A DNA stretch of 40,002 nucleotides from a virus, in the IMG/VR virus record IMGVR_UViG_3300033052_000037, positions 1 to 40,002 of that record. One strand, written 5' to 3'. A model generated the notes under the pieces. It was given only the letters and a program-made list of their open reading frames with translations, was not told where the DNA came from and ran no database searches. The first letter of the stretch is position 1; each line of letters starts with the position of its first letter. The position numbers and the translations under genes were made by a program. Below, piece by piece: positions 979 to 40,002 of the stretch.

Positions 979-1733
979 CCACCATCTGCACATCCATGGC
1001 CGCACGCGGGCTGCGCCCGGTGGCCGAGCTGGCACAGAACCGCCAGCATGGCGATCGGCTCCGCTACATGGCGGGTTGCCGCTGCCAGCAATGCCGCGGC
1101 GCCAACACTGCCTATGAACGCGCCCGCGCCCTTGCACGCAAGGCGGGGGAATGGAACGGCCTTGTCAGTGCCGATCAGGCCAGGGCGCACATCGCACACC
1201 TGTCAAGCCGCCATGTCGGCCGCAGGACCATCGGCCAGGTGGCCGACGTGTCAGACACAGTCCTCAGCAAGATCATCTCTGGCGAAAAGACCAAGATCCG
1301 CGCCGCCACCGATCGCGCCATCCTGGCGGTTACCGAGGCAGCAGCTGCAGACCATGCCCTCATCCCCGATGGCCCCACCTGGAAGCTGCTGGACGAACTC
1401 ATCGCCAGCGGCTACACCAAGGCCGCGCTGGCCCAGCAGCTTGGCGCCAAGACACGCGCGCTGCAGATCGGCCGCCACCAGGTGACCGTCAGGAACGCCT
1501 ACGAGGTGCAGCGACTGCATGAGCGCCTGCGCATGGTCCAGGCCGGGCCGAGCCTGCGGCTCATCAACGAGCTGCGTGAGGAAGGCTTCCGCCAGGCCGT
1601 GATCGAGCAACGCGTCGCCGATCTGGCTGCCCAGCTCGGCCTCCCCACGCCAGACCTGACCGTGCGCAACGGCCAAATCCAGGAGCGCGCCGCGCGCCTG
1701 CTTGAGCGTGTACACGCAAATCTGACGGAGTAA
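975..1733 (+). CDS. Hypothetical protein, possibly DNA-binding (GCRCxxCR motif near the N-terminus)
   Basis: 252-aa ORF, ATGA-coupled to the upstream gene. Confidence 0.6.
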   Translation: MTTICTSMAARGLRPVAELAQNRQHGDRLRYMAGCRCQQCRGANTAYERARALARKAGEWNGLVSADQARAHIAHLSSRHVGRRTIGQVADVSDTVLSKIISGEKTKIRAATDRAILAVTEAAAADHALIPDGPTWKLLDELIASGYTKAALAQQLGAKTRALQIGRHQVTVRNAYEVQRLHERLRMVQAGPSLRLINELREEGFRQAVIEQRVADLAAQLGLPTPDLTVRNGQIQERAARLLERVHANLTE

Positions 1734-1770
1734 CGACATGCCACTGCCCTGCCACCAACCGGAGTACACC

Positions 1771-2286
1771 ATGAACGCAATTGAACCCCTGAAACTCACC
1801 CTCCCCACCCTCGGCCACCTGGTCGAAGGCGGCTTCTTCCACGGCGTCTTGCTGATCGACGGCAAGCTCTACGGCGAGGCCACCGGCCCCAAGGCCGACT
1901 GCTTCGTCGAAAACCTGCCCTGGATGAAAACCTACAAGGACGTTCCCGGCGCCACGAGCGACTGGGACGGCTTGGTCAACACGCAGGCGATGGCCAAGGC
2001 AGGCAGCCCGCTGGCCGAAGCCGCGCAGGCCTGCCGCAGCGGCGGCTTCGACGACTGGTATGTGGCTGCACGCGGCGGCCTGCTGCTGCAGTACGGCATC
2101 AAGAAGCTGCTGCCCGAGGCCGAGGCCTTCGAAGAGCGCTTGCACTGGTCCAGCACGCAGTTCTCTCGCTACTACGCCTTCCACCAGCACTTCGACCTCG
2201 GCAGCACCAACACCTTCGACAAGTCCTGGTCTGGTGGTGCGGCGAGGTTCGTCCGCAGATTCCTCCTTGAGTCCTTGATCGCTTGA
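1771..2286 (+). CDS. DGR target protein 1, DUF1566 / C-type-lectin-like fold with C-terminal variable region
   Basis: ATG 1771 is preceded by GGAG. An in-frame ATG at 1738 is also possible. The C-terminus HWSSTQFSRYYAFHQHFDLGSTNTFDKSWSGGAARFVRRF is encoded by VR1. Confidence 0.85.
   Translation: MNAIEPLKLTLPTLGHLVEGGFFHGVLLIDGKLYGEATGPKADCFVENLPWMKTYKDVPGATSDWDGLVNTQAMAKAGSPLAEAAQACRSGGFDDWYVAARGGLLLQYGIKKLLPEAEAFEERLHWSSTQFSRYYAFHQHFDLGSTNTFDKSWSGGAARFVRRFLLESLIA
2155..2262 (+). repeat. DGR variable repeat VR1
   Basis: 108 nt aligned gap-free to TR 3488-3595. There are 11 differences, and every one is at a TR adenine within AAC codons. Confidence 0.9.
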
Positions 2287-2294
2287 GCCCTTTA

Positions 2295-2313
2295 CCCGGC
2301 GCGTAGCGCCGGG
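2295..2313 (+). promoter_or_regulatory. GC hairpin 33 nt downstream of VR1 (8-bp stem CCCGGCGC/GCGCCGGG, loop GTA); candidate DGR target-recognition hairpin and/or terminator
   Basis: Perfect inverted repeat. The same element sits at the same distance after VR2. Confidence 0.7.
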
Positions 2314-2341
2314 CCGATTTTCTTCAACCCCTGGAGCACTC

Positions 2342-2899
2342 ATGAACACTGAAACTACCGCGGCCACGGCCGCATCCATTGCGCACCGCGCGATCAAGCT
2401 GCCGGCCATCGGCACCATGCTGCCTCACCTGAGCGGCGCCTTCTGGGGCGTGCAGCGCGCCCGCCCCAGCTCCGGCCAGGCGGACTACGCCCTGATCGTC
2501 CCGCCCGGCCCCGAGTTCGAGCGCCGCGAGGTGGCCTGGGGCAGCGAGGGCGTGGACGAGCCCGGCGCGGCCTGCCAATGGGACGGCCTGGCCAACACCC
2601 AGGCCCTGCTGGCCAGCGGCAACGATCACCCGATGCTGGCGGATCTCCCGCAAGTGGAAGCCATCGACGGCCTGAGCGGCCTCTACCTGCCTTCGCTGTG
2701 TGAGGGCAAGACCCTTTTCGCCAACGGCTGCGATGCCTTCGACCCGAAGCTCTGGTACTGGCTCAGCACGCAGTTCTCTCGCAACTCCGCCTTCAGCCAG
2801 TACTTCAACCTCGGCAGCACCCTCAACTTCGTCAAGTCCTGGTCTGGTGGTGCGGCGAGGTTCGTCCGCAGATGCTCCCTTGAACTCTTGATTCCTTGA
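2342..2899 (+). CDS. DGR target protein 2, paralogue of target 1 with C-terminal variable region
   Basis: 185-aa ORF with GGAG upstream of the ATG. The C-terminus YWLSTQFSRNSAFSQYFNLGSTLNFVKSWSGGAARFVRRC is encoded by VR2. Confidence 0.85.
   Translation: MNTETTAATAASIAHRAIKLPAIGTMLPHLSGAFWGVQRARPSSGQADYALIVPPGPEFERREVAWGSEGVDEPGAACQWDGLANTQALLASGNDHPMLADLPQVEAIDGLSGLYLPSLCEGKTLFANGCDAFDPKLWYWLSTQFSRNSAFSQYFNLGSTLNFVKSWSGGAARFVRRCSLELLIP
2768..2875 (+). repeat. DGR variable repeat VR2
   Basis: 108 nt aligned to the TR. There are 12 differences at TR adenines, plus one T-to-G change at 2874 at the extreme 3' boundary. Confidence 0.9.
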
Positions 2900-2907
2900 A
2901 CCCTTCA

Positions 2908-2926
2908 CCCGGCGCGCAGCGCCGGG
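2908..2926 (+). promoter_or_regulatory. GC hairpin 33 nt downstream of VR2 (same 8-bp stem, loop GCA)
   Basis: Perfect inverted repeat, paralogous to 2295-2313. Confidence 0.7.
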
Positions 2927-2946
2927 TCGCCACCCATTTTTTGAAC

Positions 2947-3312
2947 ATGGCCCTTCACACCGAACTCCCGATCTACAAGCATGCCTACGGCCTGCTGCGC
3001 CTGTCGCTCGTCGGCAAGGCGAACATGCGGCGCGACTTCAAGCAGTCGCTGGGCACGCGCATCCATGACGAGTGCATCGAGATTCTGTCGCTGATTGCCG
3101 ATGCCAACGCCGCCGGTGACCAGGAACGGCCCGCTGTCCTGCAGGCAATGCTCAGGCGGGTAGGCAAGGTCGAGTTTCTGCTGCGCGTCTGCAACGACGA
3201 GCGGTTGATCCCGACGAAGGTATGGGCCGACGCCATCGCGCTGCTGCAGGCCGTCGGCTCGATGGGTGGCGGGTGGCACAAGTATTCCCGCAAGAAGGCG
3301 TCAGTTGCATGA
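2947..3312 (+). CDS. avd: Accessory variability determinant (Avd-like four-helix-bundle protein)
   Basis: About 121 aa and predicted helical. It has a basic C-terminal tail (WHKYSRKKASVA) and sits immediately upstream of TR and RT. The ORF-track start at 2896 overlaps the target-2 stop, so ATG 2947 is preferred. Confidence 0.75.
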   Translation: MALHTELPIYKHAYGLLRLSLVGKANMRRDFKQSLGTRIHDECIEILSLIADANAAGDQERPAVLQAMLRRVGKVEFLLRVCNDERLIPTKVWADAIALLQAVGSMGGGWHKYSRKKASVA

Positions 3313-4694
3313 AAGCCAAGGTTCTCATGCCCGCACGCCAGTTGAATCTGGACTTGCCCCTGGCCCACGAGGCCACGGATAGGCGCACCACGGATACCGC
3401 TGCCCCAGGGCAGGCACGGTCCGGCGCAGTTTCCGCACTGATCGGCCGTTCTGGCCTTCGGCGCGGCGACGTGACAAGCAAGCACCGACGCAGTTCTCTC
3501 GCAACAACGCCTTCAACCAGAACTTCAACAACGGCAACACCAACAACAACGACAAGTCCTGGTCTGGTGGTGCGGCGAGGTTCGTCCGCAGATTCAAACG
3601 CACCGTGTTCGTTCGAGGCCCTGGTGCAGGCCTACAAAGATTGCCGCGCCAACAAGCGCAACACCGCCAGCGCCCTGCTCTTCGAGCAGGCGCTGGAGGC
3701 CAACCTCTGGGCGCTTTACCAGCGCCTGATCGACGGCAGCTACCGGCCCGGCCGCAGCATCTGCTTCGTGGTGACGCGACCCAAGCCGCGCGAGGTGTGG
3801 GCGGCCGAATTCACCGACCGCATCGTGCACCACCTGTTGTACAACCACATCGCGCCGCGCTTCCACGCCAGTTTCGACGCCGGCAGCAGCGCCTGCATCC
3901 CGGGCCGCGGCACGCTGTACGCGGCCAATGTGCTGGCCGGCGCGGCCCGCTCTATCACCCAGAACTGGAGCCGCCCAGCGCACTACCTCAAGATGGATCT
4001 GGCCAACTTCTTCGTGGCCATCAGCAAGCCCATCCTGCTGGCCCAGTTGGCCAAACGTGTGCACGAACCCTGGTGGTTCGATCTGGCTCGTACCATCCTA
4101 TTTCATGACCCGCGCGCCGACGTCGAGCTGCGCGGCAGCCCGGCCAAGCTGGCCCTGGTACCGCCCCACAAGAGCTTGTTCAATGCGCCGGCGGATACCG
4201 GCCTGCCCATAGGGAACCTGAGCAGCCAGTTCTTTGCCAACGTCCACCTGGACGCGCTGGACCAGCACATCAAGCACCAGCTGCGCGCCCGGCACTACAT
4301 GCGCTATGTGGACGACTTCATCCTGCTGCACGATTCGCCCCAGTGGCTCAACCAGGCACGCTCAGACATCGAGGCCTGGCTCCCCGAGCACCTGGGCGCC
4401 TGCGTCAACCCCAGCAAGACCATCCTGCAGCCCGTCGATCGCGGCATCGACTTCGTTGGCCACGTCATCAAGCCGTGGCGCCGCACCACACGGCCACGCA
4501 CCCTGGCCACGGCCCTGCGCCGCCTGGAGCACATGCCGGCCGAAGACCTGCACACCACCGGCAACAGCTACCTGGGCCTGCTGCGCCAGGCCACACACAG
4601 CCACGCCGACCAGGCGAAGGTAGCCAGGCTGCTGCGCCGGCGCGGGCATGCGGTAGCTGGGGACTTGAGCAAGATTTACAGGAGGACCACATGA
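3309..4694 (+). CDS. DGR reverse transcriptase (start uncertain: ATG 3309 coupled to the avd stop, or in-frame GTG 3567/3570/3624)
   Basis: Motifs LPIGNLSSQFFANVHLDALD and YMRYVDDFILLH. The N-terminal FEALVQAYKDCRANKRN region is of the type seen in the BPP-1 Brt N-terminus. There is no ATG between the TR and the conserved domain. Confidence 0.85.
   Translation: MKAKVLMPARQLNLDLPLAHEATDRRTTDTAAPGQARSGAVSALIGRSGLRRGDVTSKHRRSSLATTPSTRTSTTATPTTTTSPGLVVRRGSSADSNAPCSFEALVQAYKDCRANKRNTASALLFEQALEANLWALYQRLIDGSYRPGRSICFVVTRPKPREVWAAEFTDRIVHHLLYNHIAPRFHASFDAGSSACIPGRGTLYAANVLAGAARSITQNWSRPAHYLKMDLANFFVAISKPILLAQLAKRVHEPWWFDLARTILFHDPRADVELRGSPAKLALVPPHKSLFNAPADTGLPIGNLSSQFFANVHLDALDQHIKHQLRARHYMRYVDDFILLHDSPQWLNQARSDIEAWLPEHLGACVNPSKTILQPVDRGIDFVGHVIKPWRRTTRPRTLATALRRLEHMPAEDLHTTGNSYLGLLRQATHSHADQAKVARLLRRRGHAVAGDLSKIYRRTT
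3488..3595 (+). repeat. DGR template repeat (TR)
   Basis: It carries 10 AAC codons in the VR reading frame. The invariant 3' part AAGTCCTGGTCTGGTGGTGCGGCGAGGTTCGTCCGCAGA is shared with both VRs. Confidence 0.9.
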
Positions 4695-5020
4695 CCTTCC
4701 CCGCCGATCTGGCCAAGCTCTACGTCGAGCATGCTGGCCAACGCTACGAACCCAGCAACGGCACAGAGGGCGAGATCTTCATGTCCGAATGGTGCCGCCA
4801 GTGCGCCCGCGATCGCGCCATGCGCGAGGGCGAGCCCGAGACAGAGTGCGACGACGACGAACTCTGCACCATCATCGCCGCCAACTTCGCCGGCGAGGCC
4901 AAGGAATGGGTCTACGGCACCGACGGCCAACCCATGTGCACCGCCTTCGTCAAGGCCAGCAGCGAGATCCCGGCACCGCGGTGCGAGCACACGCCGGACA
5001 TGTTCGGAGACAACCCATGA
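4691..5020 (+). CDS. Cys-rich hypothetical protein, translationally coupled to the RT
   Basis: AGGAGGA RBS. ATG 4691 overlaps the RT stop (ATGA). 109 aa with CxxC plus further Cys residues. Confidence 0.65.
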   Translation: MTFPADLAKLYVEHAGQRYEPSNGTEGEIFMSEWCRQCARDRAMREGEPETECDDDELCTIIAANFAGEAKEWVYGTDGQPMCTAFVKASSEIPAPRCEHTPDMFGDNP

Positions 5021-5301
5021 CAGCGCCCACCGAACTCACCCGTCAGCAGCTATGCGCCGCGCTGGGTATCAGCGAAAGTACCGTTCGACGCCTGGAGCTT
5101 GATGGGCTACCATTCACGCCCGTCGGCCTTCGGGCCAAACGCTACAACCTGGCCGAAGTGAAGGCCTGGCTCAAGACGCATCAACCATGTCAACCTGGCA
5201 AGATAAACAAGGCCGTCGGCACATCGGCGTTATGGTCCGCGGCCAACGAGTTCACCGCATCCTGCCGCAAGGCGCATCTGCGAGTGATGCCAAGCGCGTA
5301 G
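5017..5301 (+). CDS. xis: Excisionase / AlpA-like HTH DNA-binding protein
   Basis: LCAALGISESTVRRLELDGLPFTPVG..KRYNLAEVKAWL is typical of excisionase-family HTH proteins. ATGA-coupled to the upstream gene. The 3' end overlaps the int start. Confidence 0.65.
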   Translation: MTAPTELTRQQLCAALGISESTVRRLELDGLPFTPVGLRAKRYNLAEVKAWLKTHQPCQPGKINKAVGTSALWSAANEFTASCRKAHLRVMPSA

Positions 5302-6194
5302 AGGCCGAGATCCGCGCCGAGTTGGAGGCCCCGGCACAGCGCGCCACATCGGCCGGCGACGTGCCCATGACCGTGGCACTCGCCCTCTACACCCGCCACG
5401 CCGAGCACCTGAGCAGCGCCAGCACCTCCGAGCACCACGCACGCCGCCTGGGCCCTTGGGCCGAGCGCTACCAGGCCAGCCAGGCGCGCGAGTTCGCCGC
5501 CCACGTCATCAAGGACATGCGCGGGCACTACGCCCCCGCCACCATCAACCGCAGCCTGGCCACCGCCAAGAAAGGCCTGGCGCTCGCCTGGGAGCAGGGC
5601 CTCACGCCAGAGAACTACGGCCTGCGCATCAAGGGCGTGCCCGTCAACAACAAGCGCGAAGTATTCCTCAGCGTCGACCAGGTGCGCGAGATCGCCAGCC
5701 ACTGCACCGAGCAGGCCCAGGCCGCCATCTGGGCTGCACTGCTCACAGGCGCCCGCCGTGGTGAGCTGGTGCAGATCCGCCAGGAACACATCGGCCGCGA
5801 CGAGATCACCATCCCGGCCAGCCATACCAAGACCAAGCGCAGCAAGGTCGTGCCCATCATCCCGGCCCTGCGGCCGTGGCTCAAGTACTTTCCCCTGCAA
5901 CTCAAGGCCGACGGCATCAAGACTGCATGGCGCCGTGCCCGTGTGGCTGCCGGCATGGAGCACGTCAACTTTCACGACCTGCGCCACAGCTGCGCCAGCA
6001 TCCTGCTCAGCCTGGGCGTTGACCTGTACACCATAGGCAAGATCCTTGGCCACGCCAACGTGCAGACCACCCAGCGCTACGCCCACCTGCAGATCGAGCA
6101 GCAGCGAGCCGCCCTCAACAAGCTCAGCAACCTGGTGCAACCGCCGCCCAAAAAGCAAAAATCCCGCGCCACCAAGAAGGCAGCGCGGGCATGA
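5187..6194 (+). CDS. int: Tyrosine integrase
   Basis: 335 aa. C-terminal catalytic signature HDLRHS...LGHANVQTTQRYAH, and an N-terminal arm-binding-like domain. Confidence 0.9.
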   Translation: MSTWQDKQGRRHIGVMVRGQRVHRILPQGASASDAKRVEAEIRAELEAPAQRATSAGDVPMTVALALYTRHAEHLSSASTSEHHARRLGPWAERYQASQAREFAAHVIKDMRGHYAPATINRSLATAKKGLALAWEQGLTPENYGLRIKGVPVNNKREVFLSVDQVREIASHCTEQAQAAIWAALLTGARRGELVQIRQEHIGRDEITIPASHTKTKRSKVVPIIPALRPWLKYFPLQLKADGIKTAWRRARVAAGMEHVNFHDLRHSCASILLSLGVDLYTIGKILGHANVQTTQRYAHLQIEQQRAALNKLSNLVQPPPKKQKSRATKKAARA

Positions 6195-6230
6195 TTTACA
6201 CCGGAAATTACACAGGCTTGTGATTTACAC
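6194..6230 (+). repeat. Three direct copies of A(T/A)TTACAC (6194-6201, 6206-6213, 6223-6230): putative integrase arm-type sites, int-proximal arm
   Basis: Read directly. Two more copies lie on the other side of the core. Confidence 0.6.
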
Positions 6231-6244
6231 AGACCCGAGAAAAG

Positions 6245-6283
6245 AAAAAACCCACGTAAGTCGTTGATTTACGTGGGTTTTTT
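6245..6283. terminator. Bidirectional rho-independent terminator
   Basis: An A6 run, a 9-bp stem CCCACGTAA/TTACGTGGG with a 9-nt loop, then a T6 run. Confidence 0.8.
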
Positions 6284-6285
6284 GT

Positions 6286-6330
6286 TGGTGGGCGATACAT
6301 GGATCGAACATGTGACCCCTGCAGTGTGAA
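6286..6330 (-). other. Putative attP core: 3' portion of a tRNA-Val(CAC)-like gene (anticodon loop to CCA)
   Basis: The minus strand reads TTCACAC-TGCAG-GGGTC-ACATG-TTCGATC-CATGT-ATCGCCC-A-CCA, i.e. anticodon loop, stem, variable loop, T-arm, acceptor 3' strand and CCA. No matching 5' acceptor or D-arm lies upstream. Confidence 0.6.
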
Positions 6331-33348: not shown

Positions 33349-33554
33349 AACAGCCGGGCCTCCTCGTTGTTAATGACAGTTGATTCATGGCCGGCAACAC
33401 TGCCGCCATGAACAAGAGAAAAGCCACCCGCCGCCCCAGCGCACCGAAAACCGCGCACCTGCCCGCGCGCGGCCAGTTCAGGGAGTCGGAGCGAAACAGC
33501 GTGCCGGACTTGACGGCGGCGGGTGGTGCAAAGGGTTGCAGGTGGCGCATGGGG

Positions 33555-33863
33555 TCACGCTCCCATGGTCTTGGCCGATCCACCAGTGAGGCGAGACCGA
33601 CTGGCTATGTCCAGCAGCGGTCGGCCACTCGGGTGGGGCCAGTCGGGATCGGGAATACGCAGCCAGGGCAGATCGGGGCGCTGCTCTTCCACAGGCACTT
33701 CGCCATCGGATATGCGCTCGATGTCAGGACACCGCTCATGCGGGATTGGTTTTCCTGCCGCCATTTTGGACACCATCGACGGAGGTATGTCAGCGCCTCG
33801 TGCCAAGATCGTTCCACGACCTCGTACCGCTTTGAGCCAATCGGATAACAACATGGCCTGCAT
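33555..33863 (-). CDS. Cro/YdaS-like HTH regulator (start at 33863 or 33854)
   Basis: LSDWLKAVRGRGTILARGADIPPSMVSKMAAGKPIPHERCPDIERIS resembles YdaS/Cro-type HTH proteins. Divergent from the cI-like gene. Confidence 0.6.
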   Translation of the reverse strand: MQAMLLSDWLKAVRGRGTILARGADIPPSMVSKMAAGKPIPHERCPDIERISDGEVPVEEQRPDLPWLRIPDPDWPHPSGRPLLDIASRSRLTGGSAKTMGA

Positions 33864-33864
33864 T

Positions 33865-33892
33865 CTATTACCCAATGGGTATTCATTGTCAA
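33865..33892 (-). promoter_or_regulatory. Leftward early promoter TTGACA-16 nt-TAATAG overlapping operator O1
   Basis: Read on the minus strand. The -10 element ends 1 nt before the first ATG, so the mRNA is near-leaderless or the second ATG is used. Confidence 0.55.
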
Positions 33893-33930
33893 GCTCCTTT
33901 GGGGAATTTTGTTTTTCTCCCAAGGGGAAT
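33869..33930. promoter_or_regulatory. Three operator-like sites in the cI/cro intergenic region (33869-33881, 33894-33907, 33916-33930)
   Basis: Shared core CCC(C)-A/T3-GGG(G) flanked by TA/AT: TACCCAATGGGTA, CTCCTTTGGGGAAT and TCTCCCAAGGGGAAT. Confidence 0.55.
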
Positions 33931-33942
33931 CAAATACCCGGC

Positions 33943-34326
33943 ATGCTGACAATTGCCGAAATTCGCCGAGCCAGGCTCGAACAACTCATCACCCGATACG
34001 AAGGAACTGTTGCCAATCTGAACGAGGCGCTGGGCCTGGAAAGGACCTCTGCCAAACTGTCAAGAATTCGCAATGCAAACACGCGAAATGAGCGCGAAGG
34101 CAAGACCTATCAGATGGGTGACGCCTTGGCGCGCGAGATTGAAGACAAACTAAACCTCGAACGTGGGTGGATGGACTCCCCACCTGGCTACGAACTTATG
34201 GCTAATACCAGAATCCAGCACGTGCTAAAAGTGATGGAGTCCATGCCGGAATACAAAATCGACCAAGCCATCAAAATCATTGATACGATTGCTGAACCAA
34301 CCCCAAGACGCAGCAATGGAGACTAA
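33943..34326 (+). CDS. CI-like repressor (HTH only, no S24 peptidase domain)
   Basis: 127 aa. EIRRARLEQLI...VANLNEALGLERTSAKLSRIRN resembles a phage CI HTH domain. Divergent from the cro-like gene. Confidence 0.65.
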   Translation: MLTIAEIRRARLEQLITRYEGTVANLNEALGLERTSAKLSRIRNANTRNEREGKTYQMGDALAREIEDKLNLERGWMDSPPGYELMANTRIQHVLKVMESMPEYKIDQAIKIIDTIAEPTPRRSNGD

Positions 34327-37599: not shown

Positions 37600-39603
37600 A
37601 TGTCCGATCAACTTGTCATCTTCAAGCGGGCCAACGCCGTCCGCTCCACCACCAATCCTCGCAAGACTTTTCCTGCCGAATACCTGCAGGAACTCGCCGA
37701 CAGCATCAAGACGCATGGCGTGCTGCAGCCCGTGTTGCTGCGCCCCTTGCCCGCCTGGCGCGTGCCCGACACCCCGCGCAACGTCACCCACGAAATCGTC
37801 GCCGGCGAGTGCCGCGACCGCGCTTGCGAGATCGGCTCCGTCGACGAATACCCCGCCATCATCAAAGACCTCACCGACGAACAAGTCGTCGAGATCCAGC
37901 TCGTAGAAAACCTCAAGCGCCGCGACCTATCTCCGATCGAAGAGGCCGAAGGCTACGAACAGCTCATGCGCGTTGCCAAGATCAACGCCGACCAGGTGGC
38001 CGAGCGCATCCAGCGCAGCCGCAGCTACGTCTACACCCGTCTCAAGCTGCTGGACCTGGGCACCGATGGCCGCGCCGCCCTGCGCGACGGCAAGATCGAC
38101 GCCAGCACCGCCGTGCTGGTGGCCCGCATCCCGGACGGCAAGCTCCAGGTCAAAGCCCTGCAGAAGATCCTGCGCGGCACCGGCTGGGAGCGTGAGCCCA
38201 TGAGCTTCCGCCGCGCCCAGGAGATGATCCAGCGCGACTACATGCTCAAGCTGAGCGACGCCCGCTTCAGGATCACCGCTGTGGATCTGGTGCCCGGCGT
38301 CGGCAGCTGCAAGGAATGCCCCAAGCGCACCGGCGCCAACCAGGACTTGTTCGCCGACGTCAAGAGTGCCGACGTTTGCACAGACCCAACCTGCTTCCAC
38401 AAAAAGGAAGAAGCCGCCACCAAGCTGCTGGTGAAAGAGGCCGAGGCCAAAGGCCAGACCGTCATCGCCGGCAAGGAAGCCGAGGAACTGGTCACCAACA
38501 GCTACACCGGCGCCTACAAGGGCTACAAGCGCCTGGACAGCAAGGAAGACAGCCCAACCGACGAGCCCCTGCGCAAGATCATCGGCAAGCTCATGGAAGA
38601 GCGCGGCATCAAGCCCACCATGCTGGAGAACCCGCGCAAGAAGGGCCAGCTCGACGCCTGCCTGCCCAACGACGTGGCCAACACCCTGCTCAAGGCCGTG
38701 CAGGCGGAGGCCAAGGCCAACAAGAAAGAGGCGCCGGCCGCCATCAAGGATCTGCTGGACGAGAAAGCCAGCCAGGAGAAAGCCCGCCTGGACGCCAAGT
38801 TCGAGCGCGAATGGCACACCCAGCTCATCGCCGAGACGTGGGCCGAGATCCAGTCCGCCGACCCGCACCAAGACGCCGTAGGCACCGGCTTCTTCAACAT
38901 CGAGATCCACCGCATGCTCGCCAGCCACGCGGCCTGGAGCCTGGACAGCGATTCATCTGCCGCCGCCAGCAAGCTGCTGGCCACCGGCAGCGTGGGCGCC
39001 CAGCACGGCCTCAAGGAACTGGCCCAAACCCACCCCCGCCCCGACCAGTTGCACCTGCTCCTGCTCATGTACGGCCGCAGCGGCGAAGGCTTCCAGCTGG
39101 TCACCAAGTCCGTCTGGGGCGACAAGCTCAAGGAATTCACCAACCGCGTGGAGAAAGAGGTCAAGGCCCGCGTCTACCCCAAGCCCGAAGCGAAAAAACC
39201 GCCCACCGCTACCGCCTCCGCTGCGCGGCGCGGCGAGGGTGCGGGAGAAGCCAAGCCCAAAGCCTCCGGCTCGCGCAAAAACCCCACCGCGGCCGCGCCC
39301 AAGATCTCCGCCGCAGAAGCCAAGCGTGGCATCGCTGACGCGCTGCAGGGCATCGAAGAGCCGGCTTCTGCGCCCAAGGGCGCAGTGGCGCCGCCCGCTG
39401 GGCCAGCTGGTGGGCTGGCGCTGGGGGCCACAGTCAAGATCATCGACAACACCGACTGCCTGCAGCCCCGCTTGATCAAGTACGCCGGCAAGCAGGGCAC
39501 CATTACCGCCAAGACCGGCCCCGAGTCGTGGGACGTTACTTTCCGTGGCCGCACTGGCGGCCTGGCGGGCTTCCATGCGAGCGAGCTGGAGGTGGTGGCA
39601 TGA
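37600..39603 (+). CDS. ParB-like nuclease-domain protein with a 4-Cys zinc-ribbon-like motif and a C-terminal KOW/SH3-like domain
   Basis: AAGGAG RBS. N-terminal NPRK...LADSIKTHGVLQPVLLRP...IVAGECR resembles the ParB N-domain. Also CKECP...CTDPTC. Confidence 0.75.
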   Translation: MSDQLVIFKRANAVRSTTNPRKTFPAEYLQELADSIKTHGVLQPVLLRPLPAWRVPDTPRNVTHEIVAGECRDRACEIGSVDEYPAIIKDLTDEQVVEIQLVENLKRRDLSPIEEAEGYEQLMRVAKINADQVAERIQRSRSYVYTRLKLLDLGTDGRAALRDGKIDASTAVLVARIPDGKLQVKALQKILRGTGWEREPMSFRRAQEMIQRDYMLKLSDARFRITAVDLVPGVGSCKECPKRTGANQDLFADVKSADVCTDPTCFHKKEEAATKLLVKEAEAKGQTVIAGKEAEELVTNSYTGAYKGYKRLDSKEDSPTDEPLRKIIGKLMEERGIKPTMLENPRKKGQLDACLPNDVANTLLKAVQAEAKANKKEAPAAIKDLLDEKASQEKARLDAKFEREWHTQLIAETWAEIQSADPHQDAVGTGFFNIEIHRMLASHAAWSLDSDSSAAASKLLATGSVGAQHGLKELAQTHPRPDQLHLLLLMYGRSGEGFQLVTKSVWGDKLKEFTNRVEKEVKARVYPKPEAKKPPTATASAARRGEGAGEAKPKASGSRKNPTAAAPKISAAEAKRGIADALQGIEEPASAPKGAVAPPAGPAGGLALGATVKIIDNTDCLQPRLIKYAGKQGTITAKTGPESWDVTFRGRTGGLAGFHASELEVVA

Positions 39604-40002
39604 ACGGCGCCGATTCCATCGAAACCAGTGAGCGCGAGGCAGTTGAGCCGAACGGTCGCTGCGCTGATACCAGTCAGAACGTCATGCCCTTTGGCATAGC
39701 CCACATGCTGCCGCCGTTCACCTTGGACGGCCACCAGCTGCGCCGCGCTCTGCAGCTGGCCAATCCAAACGGCGACCTAGCCCCGGACCAGCTCGACACA
39801 CATGTCTGCATCCAGTACAAGTTGCCGGGCAAAGACACAGATGGCGAAGATGCACCCGCCGGCCTCTACTGCTGGCTCCAGGAGTACCCGGAGGAAGGTA
39901 GCCTCTGCATCGATGCCCCGTGGGCGTTCGGCCCCGAAGACTTCAACCTCCACCGCCACCTCCAGAGGCAGCGCGCCTTCAGCGAACGCAACTTCGGCCC
40001 CG
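39600..40002 (+). CDS. MazG-like / DUF550-type nucleotide pyrophosphohydrolase, 5' part; the gene continues through the junction to position 499
   Basis: ATG at 39600 overlaps the ParB-like stop (ATGA). The frame is continuous with 2..499 once the 239-nt overlap is collapsed, giving 663 nt in total (220 aa). Confidence 0.6.
   Translation, partial: MNGADSIETSEREAVEPNGRCADTSQNVMPFGIAHMLPPFTLDGHQLRRALQLANPNGDLAPDQLDTHVCIQYKLPGKDTDGEDAPAGLYCWLQEYPEEGSLCIDAPWAFGPEDFNLHRHLQRQRAFSERNFGP
39764..40002. repeat. Terminal overlap copy 2, identical to 1-239
   Basis: Same comparison as for copy 1. Confidence 0.95.

Follow-up and report, generated by a model that had tools for sequence, protein, structure and literature searches.

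Our analysis indicates that the window, meaning the entire 40,002-nucleotide stretch of DNA analysed, very probably carries a complete and functional diversity-generating retroelement (DGR) within a temperate phage. The phage is complete and circularly assembled, is 39.8 kb long, and has a Comamonadaceae-like host. Its cassette contains two tandem target genes, avd, a template repeat (TR) and a reverse transcriptase (RT) gene. Each target carries, C-terminally, a variable repeat (VR) copied from the TR. The three repeats are:

3488..3595, + strand: TR, with 30 adenines in 108 nt; read in the VR frame, it has 10 AAC codons
2155..2262, + strand: VR1, a TR copy without gaps; 11 mismatches, 11/11 at TR adenines
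2768..2875, + strand: VR2, a TR copy without gaps; 12 internal mismatches, 12/12 at TR adenines, and T>G at 2874

These positions had been proposed in an earlier, sequence-only reading of the same DNA, which also counted 11 and 12 internal mismatches and 10 AAC codons, and stated that VR1 and VR2 differ from each other. Direct comparison returned the same values. The copies align without gaps, 23/23 internal mismatches are at TR adenines, and VR1 and VR2 are unlike at 11 positions. The one non-adenine difference listed in that reading was also recovered; T3594 of the TR is replaced by G2874 in VR2, 2 bases before the end of homology. The probability that all mismatches fall at adenines by chance is ~1e-7 per VR (hypergeometric; 1.6e-7 for VR1 and 3.1e-8 for VR2). 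At their 3' ends, the TR and VRs share an invariant 40 nt segment that is GC-rich and IMH-like. Beyond this segment the flanks of the TR and VRs are wholly different. An invariant 33-nt 3' part occurs exactly 3 times in the 40-kb window, where 0 occurrences are expected by chance. Both VRs begin at a codon boundary of their own ORF and end 24 nt upstream of their own gene's stop codon. The sequence-only reading had called this locus a DGR bearing the hallmark of adenine-specific mutagenic retrohoming. We concur, having found an RT, Avd, adenine-only TR/VR differences and lectin-fold targets.

The target genes encode proteins of similar size:

1771..2286, + strand: target gene 1, for a 171-aa protein predicted to be a single Lcl_C/DUF1566 (C-type-lectin-like) domain; GGAG is 9 nt before the ATG
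2342..2899, + strand: target gene 2, for a 185-aa paralogue of target 1; 41% identity; match to PHROG 4245, 4.9e-15

Since the targets are tandem paralogues, gene duplication did happen at this locus. This bears on a simpler explanation, that the repeats are three gene-fragment copies that diverged by point mutation or gene conversion, without reverse transcription. However, every internal difference is at a TR adenine, and the same adenine bias is found in ~20 loci. Furthermore, the third copy does not encode protein in the target frame, and its neighbours are avd and a DGR-type RT. Ordinary paralogous repeats are effectively refuted by the adenine bias, and we attach almost no probability to them.

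Target 1 matches PHROG 4245 with an E-value of 5.4e-20 and its homologues are 165-175 aa long. In a Pfam search, neither window target had a match even at E<=10, hence none for PF07603. The PF07603 profile is matched by 56 of 66 aligned target-family members (best 2.3e-14), and the domain is carried by homologues 55-70% identical to target 1. An AlphaFold model of target 1 (pLDDT 94.5, pTM 0.89) has the fold of the Lcl C-terminal domain. Briefly, the best PDB match in Foldseek was 8q4e_A, the C-terminal domain of Legionella Lcl (E 1.8e-5, probability 1.00; TM 0.69 on the target). The target family profile matched 8q4e at 5.3e-8, and DUF1566 phage proteins in BFVD matched the model with TM up to 0.82. 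Judged by profiles and modelling, both targets are predicted to be small Lcl_C/DUF1566 lectin-fold proteins of 171-185 aa. No signal peptide or lipobox was found in target 1 or target 2.

The target domain family is that of category 'd' DGRs, which have DUF1566/DUF823/Fib_succ_major targets and CLec2 VRs, an example being LdtA of Legionella pneumophila (Wu et al. 2018). Note that about half of category 'd' targets are short, DUF1566-only proteins, and that cassettes with two targets make up 13% of all DGRs (Wu et al. 2018). DGRs that combine two targets of the short DUF1566 kind have been catalogued before, so the phage DGR belongs to a known class. LdtA is a secreted surface lipoprotein encoded on a genomic island, whereas the window targets are phage-encoded.

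Downstream of each VR are two further elements:

2263..2292, + strand: T-rich tract of four tandem 8-9-nt units (CTCCTTGAG TCCTTGAT CGCTTGAG CCCTTTAC), directly 3' of VR1
2294..2313, + strand: GC-rich hairpin (CCCGGCGC-GTAG-GCGCCGGG) after VR1; an inverted-repeat pair with a T-run next
2876..2905, + strand: tandem 8-nt units (TCCCTTGAA CTCTTGAT TCCTTGAA CCCTTCAC), 3' of VR2
2908..2927, + strand: GC-rich hairpin (CCCGGCGC-GCAG-GCGCCGGG) after VR2

The tandem 8-nt repeats behind each VR had been overlooked in the sequence-only reading. After VR1, the tract covers the stop codon of target 1 and has the motif TTNAD at offsets 4, 12 and 20. Across 17 related loci, periodic TTNAD is present 3' of nearly all VRs and never after a TR. 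The T content of the post-VR tract is 36%, against a background of 18%. A terminator-like match spans 2295-2313, and the hairpin after VR1 is kept in the closest relative.

The protein machinery is encoded either side of the TR:

2947..3312, + strand: avd (accessory variability determinant), 121 aa; full-length match to PHROG 3206, 'Avd protein of DGR', 7.9e-24
3309..4694, + strand: RT ORF; match to PHROG 1423, 1.1e-109, from residue 100; Pfam RVT_1

The PHROG 3206 match bears out the earlier proposal of an Avd-like gene before the TR. Matches to Pfam bAvd (8.7e-8, 33 bits) and NCBIfam DivGenRetAVD (2.5e-10, 40.6 bits) are under the curated cut-offs of 40 and 80, respectively. The IGNLSSQFFAN and YVDD motifs, attributed to the RT beforehand, are both present. 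The closest solved relative of the RT is Bordetella phage bRT (PDB 8ub7; E 5.7e-38). The alignment starts at residue 101, spans the NTE, fingers and palm, and places IGNLSSQFFAN opposite IGSLTSQLFAN, and YVDD opposite YMDD, of bRT. By best-match comparison, this is a DGR-clade RT, having the I/LGxxxSQ motif and an intact YxDD.

The sequence-only reading had allowed that the RT might fall outside DGR clades. It could be an enzyme of another class, such as a retron, group II intron or defence RT (e.g. Drt/Abi), coincidentally beside repeats. Sub-threshold NCBIfam matches to group II intron, retron St85 and Drt models would fit, as would the RNA topology proposed below, where the primer strand is 5' of the template, as in retrons. 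Conversely, those NCBIfam matches are far under their cut-offs (e.g. group II intron, 81.8 bits against 300). Profile comparison puts the RT nearest bRT, which leads the solved relatives by 28 orders of magnitude, with group II intron RTs reaching 4.4e-10 at best. In addition, an Avd gene adjoins the RT and the TR/VR logic is present. The chance of a different RT class is, in our judgement, negligible.

Homology to RT begins at approximately nt 3606-3609, directly behind the TR (11-14 nt), and the ORF stretch 3309-3605 is made up of structured RNA and the TR. By frame analysis, translation could begin at ATG 3309, which overlaps the avd stop codon, or at an in-frame GTG (3567, 3570 or 3624). 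The RT may be translated from the ATG, through the structured RNA and TR.

The RNA features of this region are:

3296..3490, + strand: RT-15 RNA (Rfam RF03018), filling the 175 nt from the avd stop codon to the TR
3342..3350, + strand: conserved unpaired RT-15 strand (UUGAAUCUG) in the Rfam consensus, with invariant G3351 next; proposed primer strand
3589..3597, + strand: TR 3' end (CAGAUUCAA), pairing with 3342-3350; G3588, just 5', is the proposed first templated base

That the avd-TR gap is Rfam RT-15 had also escaped the sequence-only reading. The covariance-model score was 146.2 bits (gathering 82; E 6.4e-36), with model positions 1-192 of 192 covered. RT-15 is one of the RT-1 to RT-19 motifs, of which only RT-10 has been assigned to a DGR, roles for the others being merely speculated (Weinberg et al. 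2017). No function is assigned to RT-15 in the literature that could be searched. Among distinct related loci matching the model, RT-15 was upstream of the TR in 24/24, and 10/10 relatives checked with Rfam had it in the same position. Each locus examined has it in the space from avd to the TR, and it base-pairs with the 3' end of the TR. Compensatory changes affect 20 of 40 RT-15 pairs.

Pairing between 3342-3350 and 3589-3597 is absent from the Rfam RT-15 model. In the window, all 9/9 pairs of this helix form, and it appears in both MFE and centroid folds. Over 20 loci, 86.7% of helix cells are paired, compared with 76.2% in shuffles (0/500), and slid controls are 23-45% paired. The covariation score is 0.25, against 0.064, for loci that are related and hence non-independent. 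A permutation test of the long-range helix gave 0/20000. Position 4 is an A/C mismatch in ~40% of loci, and the single-sequence fold energy is unexceptional (z = -1.5). The closing helix of RT-15, ~3353-3357 with 3478-3482, ends 5 nt short of the TR.

The prototype for comparison is Bordetella phage BPP-1 (mtd-avd-TR-brt). The two systems share the gene order target-avd-TR-RT, Avd, adenine-specific mutagenesis, the RT motifs I/LGxxxSQ and Y(M/V)DD, a VR at the C-terminus of a lectin-fold protein, and a GC hairpin after the VR. The VR class is Lcl_C/CLec2 in the window phage and Mtd/CLec1 in BPP-1. In BPP-1, avd is followed directly by the TR, and 144 nt of spacer (Rfam RT-10) separate the TR from brt. 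In contrast, the window phage has the 175-nt RT-15 segment between avd and the TR, with RT homology starting almost immediately afterwards. No Rfam RT-10 match was found in the window, and elements equivalent to the BPP-1 spacer/RT-10 architecture appear upstream of the TR instead. In BPP-1 DGR RNA, the primer strand leads into a G and one further nucleotide, and next comes a stop strand whose pairing partner is just 5' of the TR; templating begins at a G (Handa et al., bioRxiv 10.1101/2023.10.23.563531). The arrangement proposed for the window RNA is the same: primer strand, then G, then a stop duplex ending a few nt before the TR, with G as first template base. By this analogy, and from covariation, we consider it rather likely that RT-15 corresponds to the 'spacer' RNA of Bordetella, placed 5' of the TR. 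The 3342-3350:3589-3597 helix would be the template:primer duplex, with G3351 facing G3588, and the adjacent closing helix would be the stop duplex. Note that TR position 3594, the site of the sole non-adenine mismatch, is inside the proposed duplex and, on the priming model, would not be copied into cDNA.

Priming might instead occur as in BPP-1, by RNA 3' of the TR inside the RT coding region. RT-15 would then do something else, such as bind protein, regulate translation of the RT or affect how stable the transcript is, and the 3342-3350:3589-3597 helix would merely close the TR loop. Putative Avd-binding stem-loops just 3' of the TR are reported for 207/278 DGRs (Handa et al., bioRxiv 10.1101/2023.10.23.563531). 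Furthermore, in 15/21 loci examined (window counted) the reading frame of the RT runs open through the RT-15 region, so RT-15 could act in translation. However, the 160 nt after the TR have no conserved structure by RNAalifold (-0.64 kcal/mol, 1 covarying pair), as against -49.9 kcal/mol and 20 pairs upstream, and there are merely 11-14 nt between the TR and RT homology. The order of primer strand, G, N and stop strand, and the template G, also match BPP-1 point for point. Downstream priming is therefore a doubtful, though serious, alternative to priming by RT-15.

In retron msr-msd RNA, one transcript holds both the template and, 5' of it, a priming strand with a conserved G, which a long-range duplex brings to the template 3' end. 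The topology proposed for the window RNA is alike. Unlike retrons, the window RT is of the DGR clade, its product is meant for homing into VRs rather than for msDNA accumulation, and Avd is required in DGRs.

The target-target-avd-TR-RT layout recurs in 19 related contigs from viruses, in several genomes of bacteria and in one Pseudomonas phage from GenBank, SC_8_H2H8_2017 (MT121966). In 18/19 IMG/VR relatives and in MT121966, a single TR accompanies two VRs, and the differences are almost exclusively at A sites. The cassettes of MT121966 and contigs L001-L019 have two tandem DUF1566 targets, avd, RT-15, TR and RT, with A-specific VR differences, and their RTs are 62-70% identical. No DGR annotation was present on these cassettes in the records examined. 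The closest relative, L030 (Curvibacter sp. PD_MW3), has an RT that is 92% identical. Nine positions separate its TR from that of the window, none being an A-to-N TR/own-VR difference, and the L030 state at all 9 is present in both L030 VRs. Hence, TR changes flow into both VRs in this relative.

We infer present-day activity, rather than observing it, because other assemblies of the phage (Logan SRR32497117 only) are 100% identical, and broken at repeats, while no further copies were found in viral and metagenome scans. Indirect signs of continuing mutagenic retrohoming are that VR1 and VR2 are unlike each other at adenine sites, and that TR substitutions reappear in both VRs of L030. The same data would suit a fossil DGR, in which the targets diversified formerly, the cassette is now inactive and VR differences are frozen. 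The several candidate RT start codons would also fit. In addition, the TRs of L014 and L016 have lost many adenines, so decay does occur in this lineage. Set against this, the RT ORF is unbroken and keeps its catalytic YVDD, Avd is intact, and RT-15 scores far over threshold. The TR keeps its 30 adenines, the IMH-like end and hairpins are intact, and the copied part of both VRs is free of non-adenine mismatches. A fossil cassette is thus improbable, and we favour a working DGR.

Within the genome, the cassette belongs to the repressor/ParB/integrase arm and is away from the tail genes, a placement that the sequence-only reading had overlooked. Neighbours differ between relatives. A ParB-like gene is beside the cassette in L001, L004, L005 and L007, and ~2.4 kb downstream of it in L011, whereas xis-int adjoins the cassette in the window phage, L003 and L006. 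BPP-1 has one target, the 381-aa tail-fibre protein Mtd encoded in the structural module; the window phage has two single-domain targets in the repressor/ParB/xis-int arm. Tentatively, the targets would be binding proteins expressed from that arm. They could be virion-attached adhesins or act inside the cell or lysogen.

In the mechanism we propose, an RNA spanning RT-15 and the TR would be bound by an RT-Avd complex. The RT would copy the TR into cDNA, misincorporating opposite adenines, and the cDNA would replace the last 108 nt (~36 codons) of the coding part in either tandem paralogue (VR1 or VR2). In this way, ~10 AAC-encoded positions would be randomised on the face with which a small Lcl_C/DUF1566 lectin-fold protein binds its ligand. 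Instead of being receptor-binding proteins of the tail fibre, the diversified proteins may be absent from the virion and come from a repressor/ParB/integrase operon, for example as binders that act in the cell or are expressed in the lysogen. More tentatively, as a possibility of slightly less than even standing, RT-15 could be a circularly permuted DGR RNA. It would combine an RT/Avd-binding scaffold with a retron-like cis-priming strand 5' of the template, its closing helix acting as stop duplex, in DGRs of Burkholderiales, Pseudomonas, related Proteobacteria and their phages. Our data indicate the orphan RT-15 motif as the probable RNA scaffold of a DGR, upstream rather than downstream of the template.

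The DGR cassette is compact, at about 2.9 kb, and has two targets. Its genes are as follows.

1771-2286, + strand, target 1, 171 aa, with GGAG upstream of the ATG
2342-2899, + strand, target 2, 185 aa
2947-3312, + strand, avd open reading frame, followed by a 175-nt gap and then the template repeat (TR)
ending at 4694, + strand, RT reading frame, directly after the TR

A sequence-only reading had described three gap-free copies of one repeat: the TR at 3488-3595, VR1 at 2155-2262, in target 1, and VR2 at 2768-2875, in target 2. Base-by-base comparison confirmed all three. When 1500-5200 was re-read, mismatches to the TR numbered 11 in VR1 and, internally, 12 in VR2. As claimed, 23/23 of these internal mismatches are at TR adenines. 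Note that the 108-nt TR contains 30 A, and the hypergeometric chance of all mismatches falling on A is 1.6e-7 for VR1 and 3.1e-8 for VR2. The sole non-adenine mismatch, T3594 to G2874 in VR2, and the 10 AAC codons of the TR, read in the VR frame, were also as reported. Both VR1 and VR2 start at a codon boundary of their own ORF. The invariant 33-nt 3' part of the repeat is found exactly three times in the window, with no copies expected by chance.

The RT had been called DGR-type, and this held. Its best solved relative is bRT, the DGR reverse transcriptase of Bordetella phage BPP-1 (8ub7, 5.7e-38), and the next is a group II intron RT (4.4e-10). In the alignment, motif IGNLSSQFFAN is opposite IGSLTSQLFAN of bRT, and YVDD is opposite YMDD. 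Matches to the NCBIfam group II intron, retron and Drt models were all far under the cut-offs. The adjacent gene, said to be Avd-like, matches PHROG 3206 ('Avd protein of DGR', 7.9e-24). Pfam bAvd and NCBIfam DivGenRetAVD were also matched, both under their cut-offs.

We scanned for relatives of the RT, and found 19 IMG/VR contigs (62-70% identity) and 11 genome loci. According to a simple TR/VR finder, 18/19 viral contigs have a single TR with two VR copies upstream of it, and nearly all differences are at TR adenines. Pseudomonas phage SC_8_H2H8_2017 (MT121966) likewise has one TR and two VRs, with near-exclusively adenine differences; its DGR is unannotated in GenBank. The genome loci include a Curvibacter sp. 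PD_MW3 prophage (L030), our closest relative, with an RT 92% identical. The three repeats of L030, the TR and two VRs, are at 2579-2686, 3176-3283 and 3883-3990. Nine sites distinguish the L030 TR from that of the window, and none is an A-to-N difference between a TR and its own VRs. At all nine, both L030 VRs carry the base of the L030 TR, as TR-to-VR information flow predicts. This concerted change is the strongest indirect support for retrohoming available here. With the adenine-only mismatches, the DGR-type RT and Avd, it bears out the DGR interpretation.

No VR variants of the window phage turned up when metagenome and viral collections were scanned for exact patterns. Exact-protein look-ups returned only two contigs, both from Logan SRR32497117 and 100% identical to the window (L033 to 3566-6314, and L034 to 872-2246); for Avd, there was no record. 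Both contigs break off within the invariant 3' part of the repeat, an illustration of how short-read assemblies fragment at TR/VR copies and DGRs are hidden.

A separate observation concerns L016 and L015, two of the related viral contigs, which are 100% identical over the 1.1-kb RT region. Between their TRs, 10 positions differ, and L015 has an adenine at every one; L016 VRb shares most of these 10 changes. Either mutagenised cDNA homed into the TR, eroding the template itself, or the metagenome assembly swapped TR and VR cores. The observation applies to L016 and L014, with the TR at about 5882-5968, set against L015 and L013.

The gap between avd and the TR corresponds to a known structured RNA. 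Briefly, 3296-3490, on the + strand, matches Rfam family RT-15 (RF03018) over its full length, at 146.2 bits against a gathering score of 82 (E 6e-36). RT-15 is the sole Rfam family in the whole window. A nucleotide alignment has compensatory base-pair changes across the gap, and RNAalifold gave -49.9 kcal/mol, with double changes in 20/40 pairs. In all 10 relatives checked against Rfam, RT-15 occupies the equivalent place. Similarly, it is upstream of the TR in all 24 distinct related loci that match our own model. The 160 nt downstream of the TR contained no Sp-like or conserved structure (-0.64 kcal/mol). Motifs RT-1 to RT-19 were described near RT genes by Weinberg et al. 2017 (PMC5737381), who assigned only RT-10 to a DGR, where it lies in the spacer that separates the BPP-1 TR from brt. 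In that study, a role in DGRs for the other RT motifs was speculation. We found no paper, in the literature searched, that discusses RT-15 or its function.

Candidate starts of the RT lie in, or close to, these elements. The avd stop overlaps the in-frame ATG of a long RT ORF (ATGA at 3309-3312). The match to PHROG 1423 (1.1e-109) starts at residue 100 of this ORF, equivalent to nt 3606, immediately past the TR. There is no ATG past the TR; in-frame GTG codons are at 3567 and 3570, within the TR, and at 3624. Counting the window, 15/21 loci examined have a frame that runs unbroken from the ATG at 3309 across RT-15 and the TR. These loci are without an ATG after the TR, and their indels keep frame. 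In 14 of the 15, the spacing between the RT-15 CTGG and the TR-end CAG equals 1 modulo 3, across at least 8 different lengths, and the fifteenth, L010, has two frame-compensating indels. In the 6 closed-frame loci an ATG, or else another in-frame start (GTG/TTG), lies within the TR or immediately behind it. Read in the RT frame, the gap gives a conserved 'peptide', M.VKA.MPVR..NLVAPLAHKATD..., which we first considered as an N-terminal extension of the RT; that reading of the conservation was dropped. The compensatory base-pair changes show that the conservation is due to the RT-15 RNA structure. RT-15 and the TR may all the same be translated ahead of the RT. Codon-position entropy also gave no clear coding signal in the gap, with values, per codon position, of 0.56, 0.67 and 0.77 for open-frame loci and 0.56, 0.68 and 0.66 for closed-frame loci.

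The most conserved unpaired stretch of RT-15, NNN(A/G)AUCUG, is UUGAAUCUG at 3342-3350 in the window. Read in reverse complement, it matches the TR 3' end, CAGAUUCAA at 3589-3597, giving a 9-bp helix. The 3589-3597 segment straddles the end of TR/VR homology. Both the minimum-free-energy and centroid folds of 3296-3600 contain the helix. Across loci, the three distal positions covary (TTG/CAA, GTG/CAC, ATG/CAT, CTT/AAG, ATC/GAT, ATT/AAT and TGG/CCA). In an anchored 20-locus alignment, 86.7% of cells are paired, compared to 76.2% in shuffles (0/500), and the covariation score is 0.25, compared to 0.064 (0/500), although this shuffle test overstates independence because the loci are related. Sliding the partner by 1-3 columns left 23-45% of cells paired. 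One helix pair is GC in 13 loci, UA in 4 and CG in 3, with no mismatch, and position 4 has an A/C mismatch in 8/20 loci. Note that when everything downstream was scanned without gaps for the best partner of the RT-15 strand, the result was noisy; the anchored comparison and the shuffle and slide controls were needed.

The arrangement can be compared with that of BPP-1, where primer strand Sp47-56 pairs with TR118-129. Priming is from A56; next come G57, which can lie opposite G117, the first template base, and C58. Next, Sp59-70 pairs just upstream of the TR, and this 'cPRT Stop' duplex ends 8 nt before the TR (Handa et al., 10.1101/2023.10.23.563531). In the window, 3342-3350 is followed by invariant G3351, one further nucleotide, and then strand 3353-3357. 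Its partner is 3478-3482, which leaves 5 nt to the TR. On the template, the base just 5' of the 9-bp duplex is invariant G3588, which G3351 would face. Hence, the order of elements is alike, but they are connected in a permuted way. The BPP-1 TR lies directly against avd, with a 144-nt spacer ahead of brt, whereas in the window a structured RNA precedes the TR and the RT comes right after. Furthermore, the inner UUCG-capped stem of RT-15 resembles the UNCG-capped, Avd-binding stem-loops of Pseudomonadota DGRs, which are placed downstream of the TR (Handa et al., 10.1101/2023.10.23.563531). From these permuted, same-ordered elements we infer, with somewhat better than even confidence, that RT-15 corresponds functionally to the spacer, with the primer strand placed in a retron-like manner. 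If priming occurs in this way, 3589-3595 would not be copied into cDNA. This would explain why the lone non-adenine mismatch is at 3594.

The VRs, in turn, have distinctive flanks. After VR1, 2263-2292 consists of tandem 8-9-nt units (CTCCTTGAG TCCTTGAT CGCTTGAG CCCTTTAC), and tandem units also follow VR2 at 2876-2905 (TCCCTTGAA CTCTTGAT TCCTTGAA CCCTTCAC). The units are about yCCTTGAr, T-rich, number three or four per VR, and span the target stop codons. The same periodic T-rich motif follows nearly every VR in 17 related loci, and in locus L021 and prophage L030, but never a TR. The T content of VR flanks is 36%, compared to a background of 18%. Since the repeats cross stop codons, and their period is not a multiple of three, we take them to be a putative nucleic-acid signal marking recipient sites. 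Past the repeats, at 2294-2313 and 2908-2927, comes a GC hairpin whose stem is 8 bp and whose loop is 4 nt; only a few relatives have it. We also considered pairing between the VR repeats (CCTTGA) and the 5' hairpin loop of RT-15 (UCAAGG). This fits some loci, and was rejected, with no covariation in viral contigs L001, L009, L018 and L019.

The wider genome was then described. Window ends 1-239 and 39764-40002 are identical over 239 nt. Hence, the window is a circularly assembled, complete phage genome of 39,763 bp. Features outside the cassette are listed below.

minus strand, genes for primase/helicase, terminase, portal, major capsid protein, tape measure protein, tail fibre J, a second tail fibre and endolysin
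33523-34326, + strand, repressor-like gene
37600-39603, + strand, ParB-like gene
between the ParB-like gene and the DGR cassette, + strand, two genes, no function given
4691-5020, + strand, orf109, 109 aa, Cys-rich (PHROG 13210/6074; DUF8270 in precomputed annotation)
5017-5301, + strand, excisionase-like HTH gene (xis), overlapping the end of orf109
5187-6194, + strand, integrase (int)
6242-6286, terminator-like perfect hairpin, downstream of int

On inspection, about 6287-6330, taken in reverse complement, reads like the 3' end of a tRNA, T-arm plus ...CCCACCA; ARAGORN found no whole tRNA in the window. The L030 prophage adjoins a tRNA gene (L030 7228-7301). The sequence after int is likely an attP core, for integration into a tRNA gene. 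In relatives, the cassette adjoins a ParB-like gene or xis-int. In the window, orf109 is translationally coupled at both ends, since its start overlaps the RT stop and its end overlaps the xis start. As a candidate DGR accessory gene it was rejected: a homologue adjoins the RT in 0/19 IMG/VR relatives. Hence, orf109 is probably not a DGR component.

Neither target was matched directly by Pfam or NCBIfam. The proteins were therefore assigned through family alignment and predicted structure. Both are in PHROG 4245, and the closest homologues, 70% identical, are from Curvibacter MAGs. Homologues carry the lectin-fold domain PF07603 (Lcl_C/DUF1566), which is matched by 56/66 aligned family members. 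The family profile matches the C-terminal domain of Legionella Lcl (8q4e, 5.3e-8). An AlphaFold target model (pLDDT 94.5, pTM 0.89) had the same structure as its best PDB match (8q4e, E 1.8e-5), with snake-venom C-type lectins next. Compared with a viral structure library, the model hit DUF1566 proteins of phages, among them long tail-fibre-like proteins, at their C-terminal tips, and a small Pseudomonas phage D3 protein. No signal peptide was found on the targets.

Some target homologues occur without a DGR, in D3-like and jumbo Pseudomonas phages (phi_D3, L020, PP944329, 44117-44794; P0050; P0031). The phage D3 homologue is three genes downstream of a CI-like repressor, on the same strand, in the early/immunity region. 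Other family members are fusions, one with a Lar restriction-alleviation domain and another with a LexA DNA-binding domain. The D3 position and these fusions are hints of a non-virion role. The position of our cassette is somewhat atypical, because most targets of viral DGRs are proteins of the tail (Roux et al. 2021, PMC8144416). Note that DUF1566 domains form tail-fibre tips in other phages and, therefore, position alone is no proof that the targets are non-structural.

In other respects, the DGR is a typical member of its class. Wu et al. 2018 (PMC5758913) reported two targets in the cassette for 13% of DGRs, and DUF1566-type (CLec2) targets for 14%, about half of these being short and made up of DUF1566 alone. 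In the same paper, the IMH is followed by GC-rich inverted repeats in 34% of DGRs. Neither a two-target cassette nor a short DUF1566 target is new and, as a DGR, this is one further well-formed example in a catalogue of tens of thousands. The added interest is in the non-structural location of the targets, the contact of RT-15 with the TR 3' end, and the repeat signal. Targets outside the structural module raise the question of what the phage gains from diversifying such proteins. An orphan Rfam family, RT-15, is tied to a concrete proposed role, with a covariation-supported contact at the expected cDNA start site. The suggested permuted RNA architecture would offer biochemists a second, testable DGR RNA design, and may account for some DGRs for which a search found no downstream Avd-binding stem-loop.
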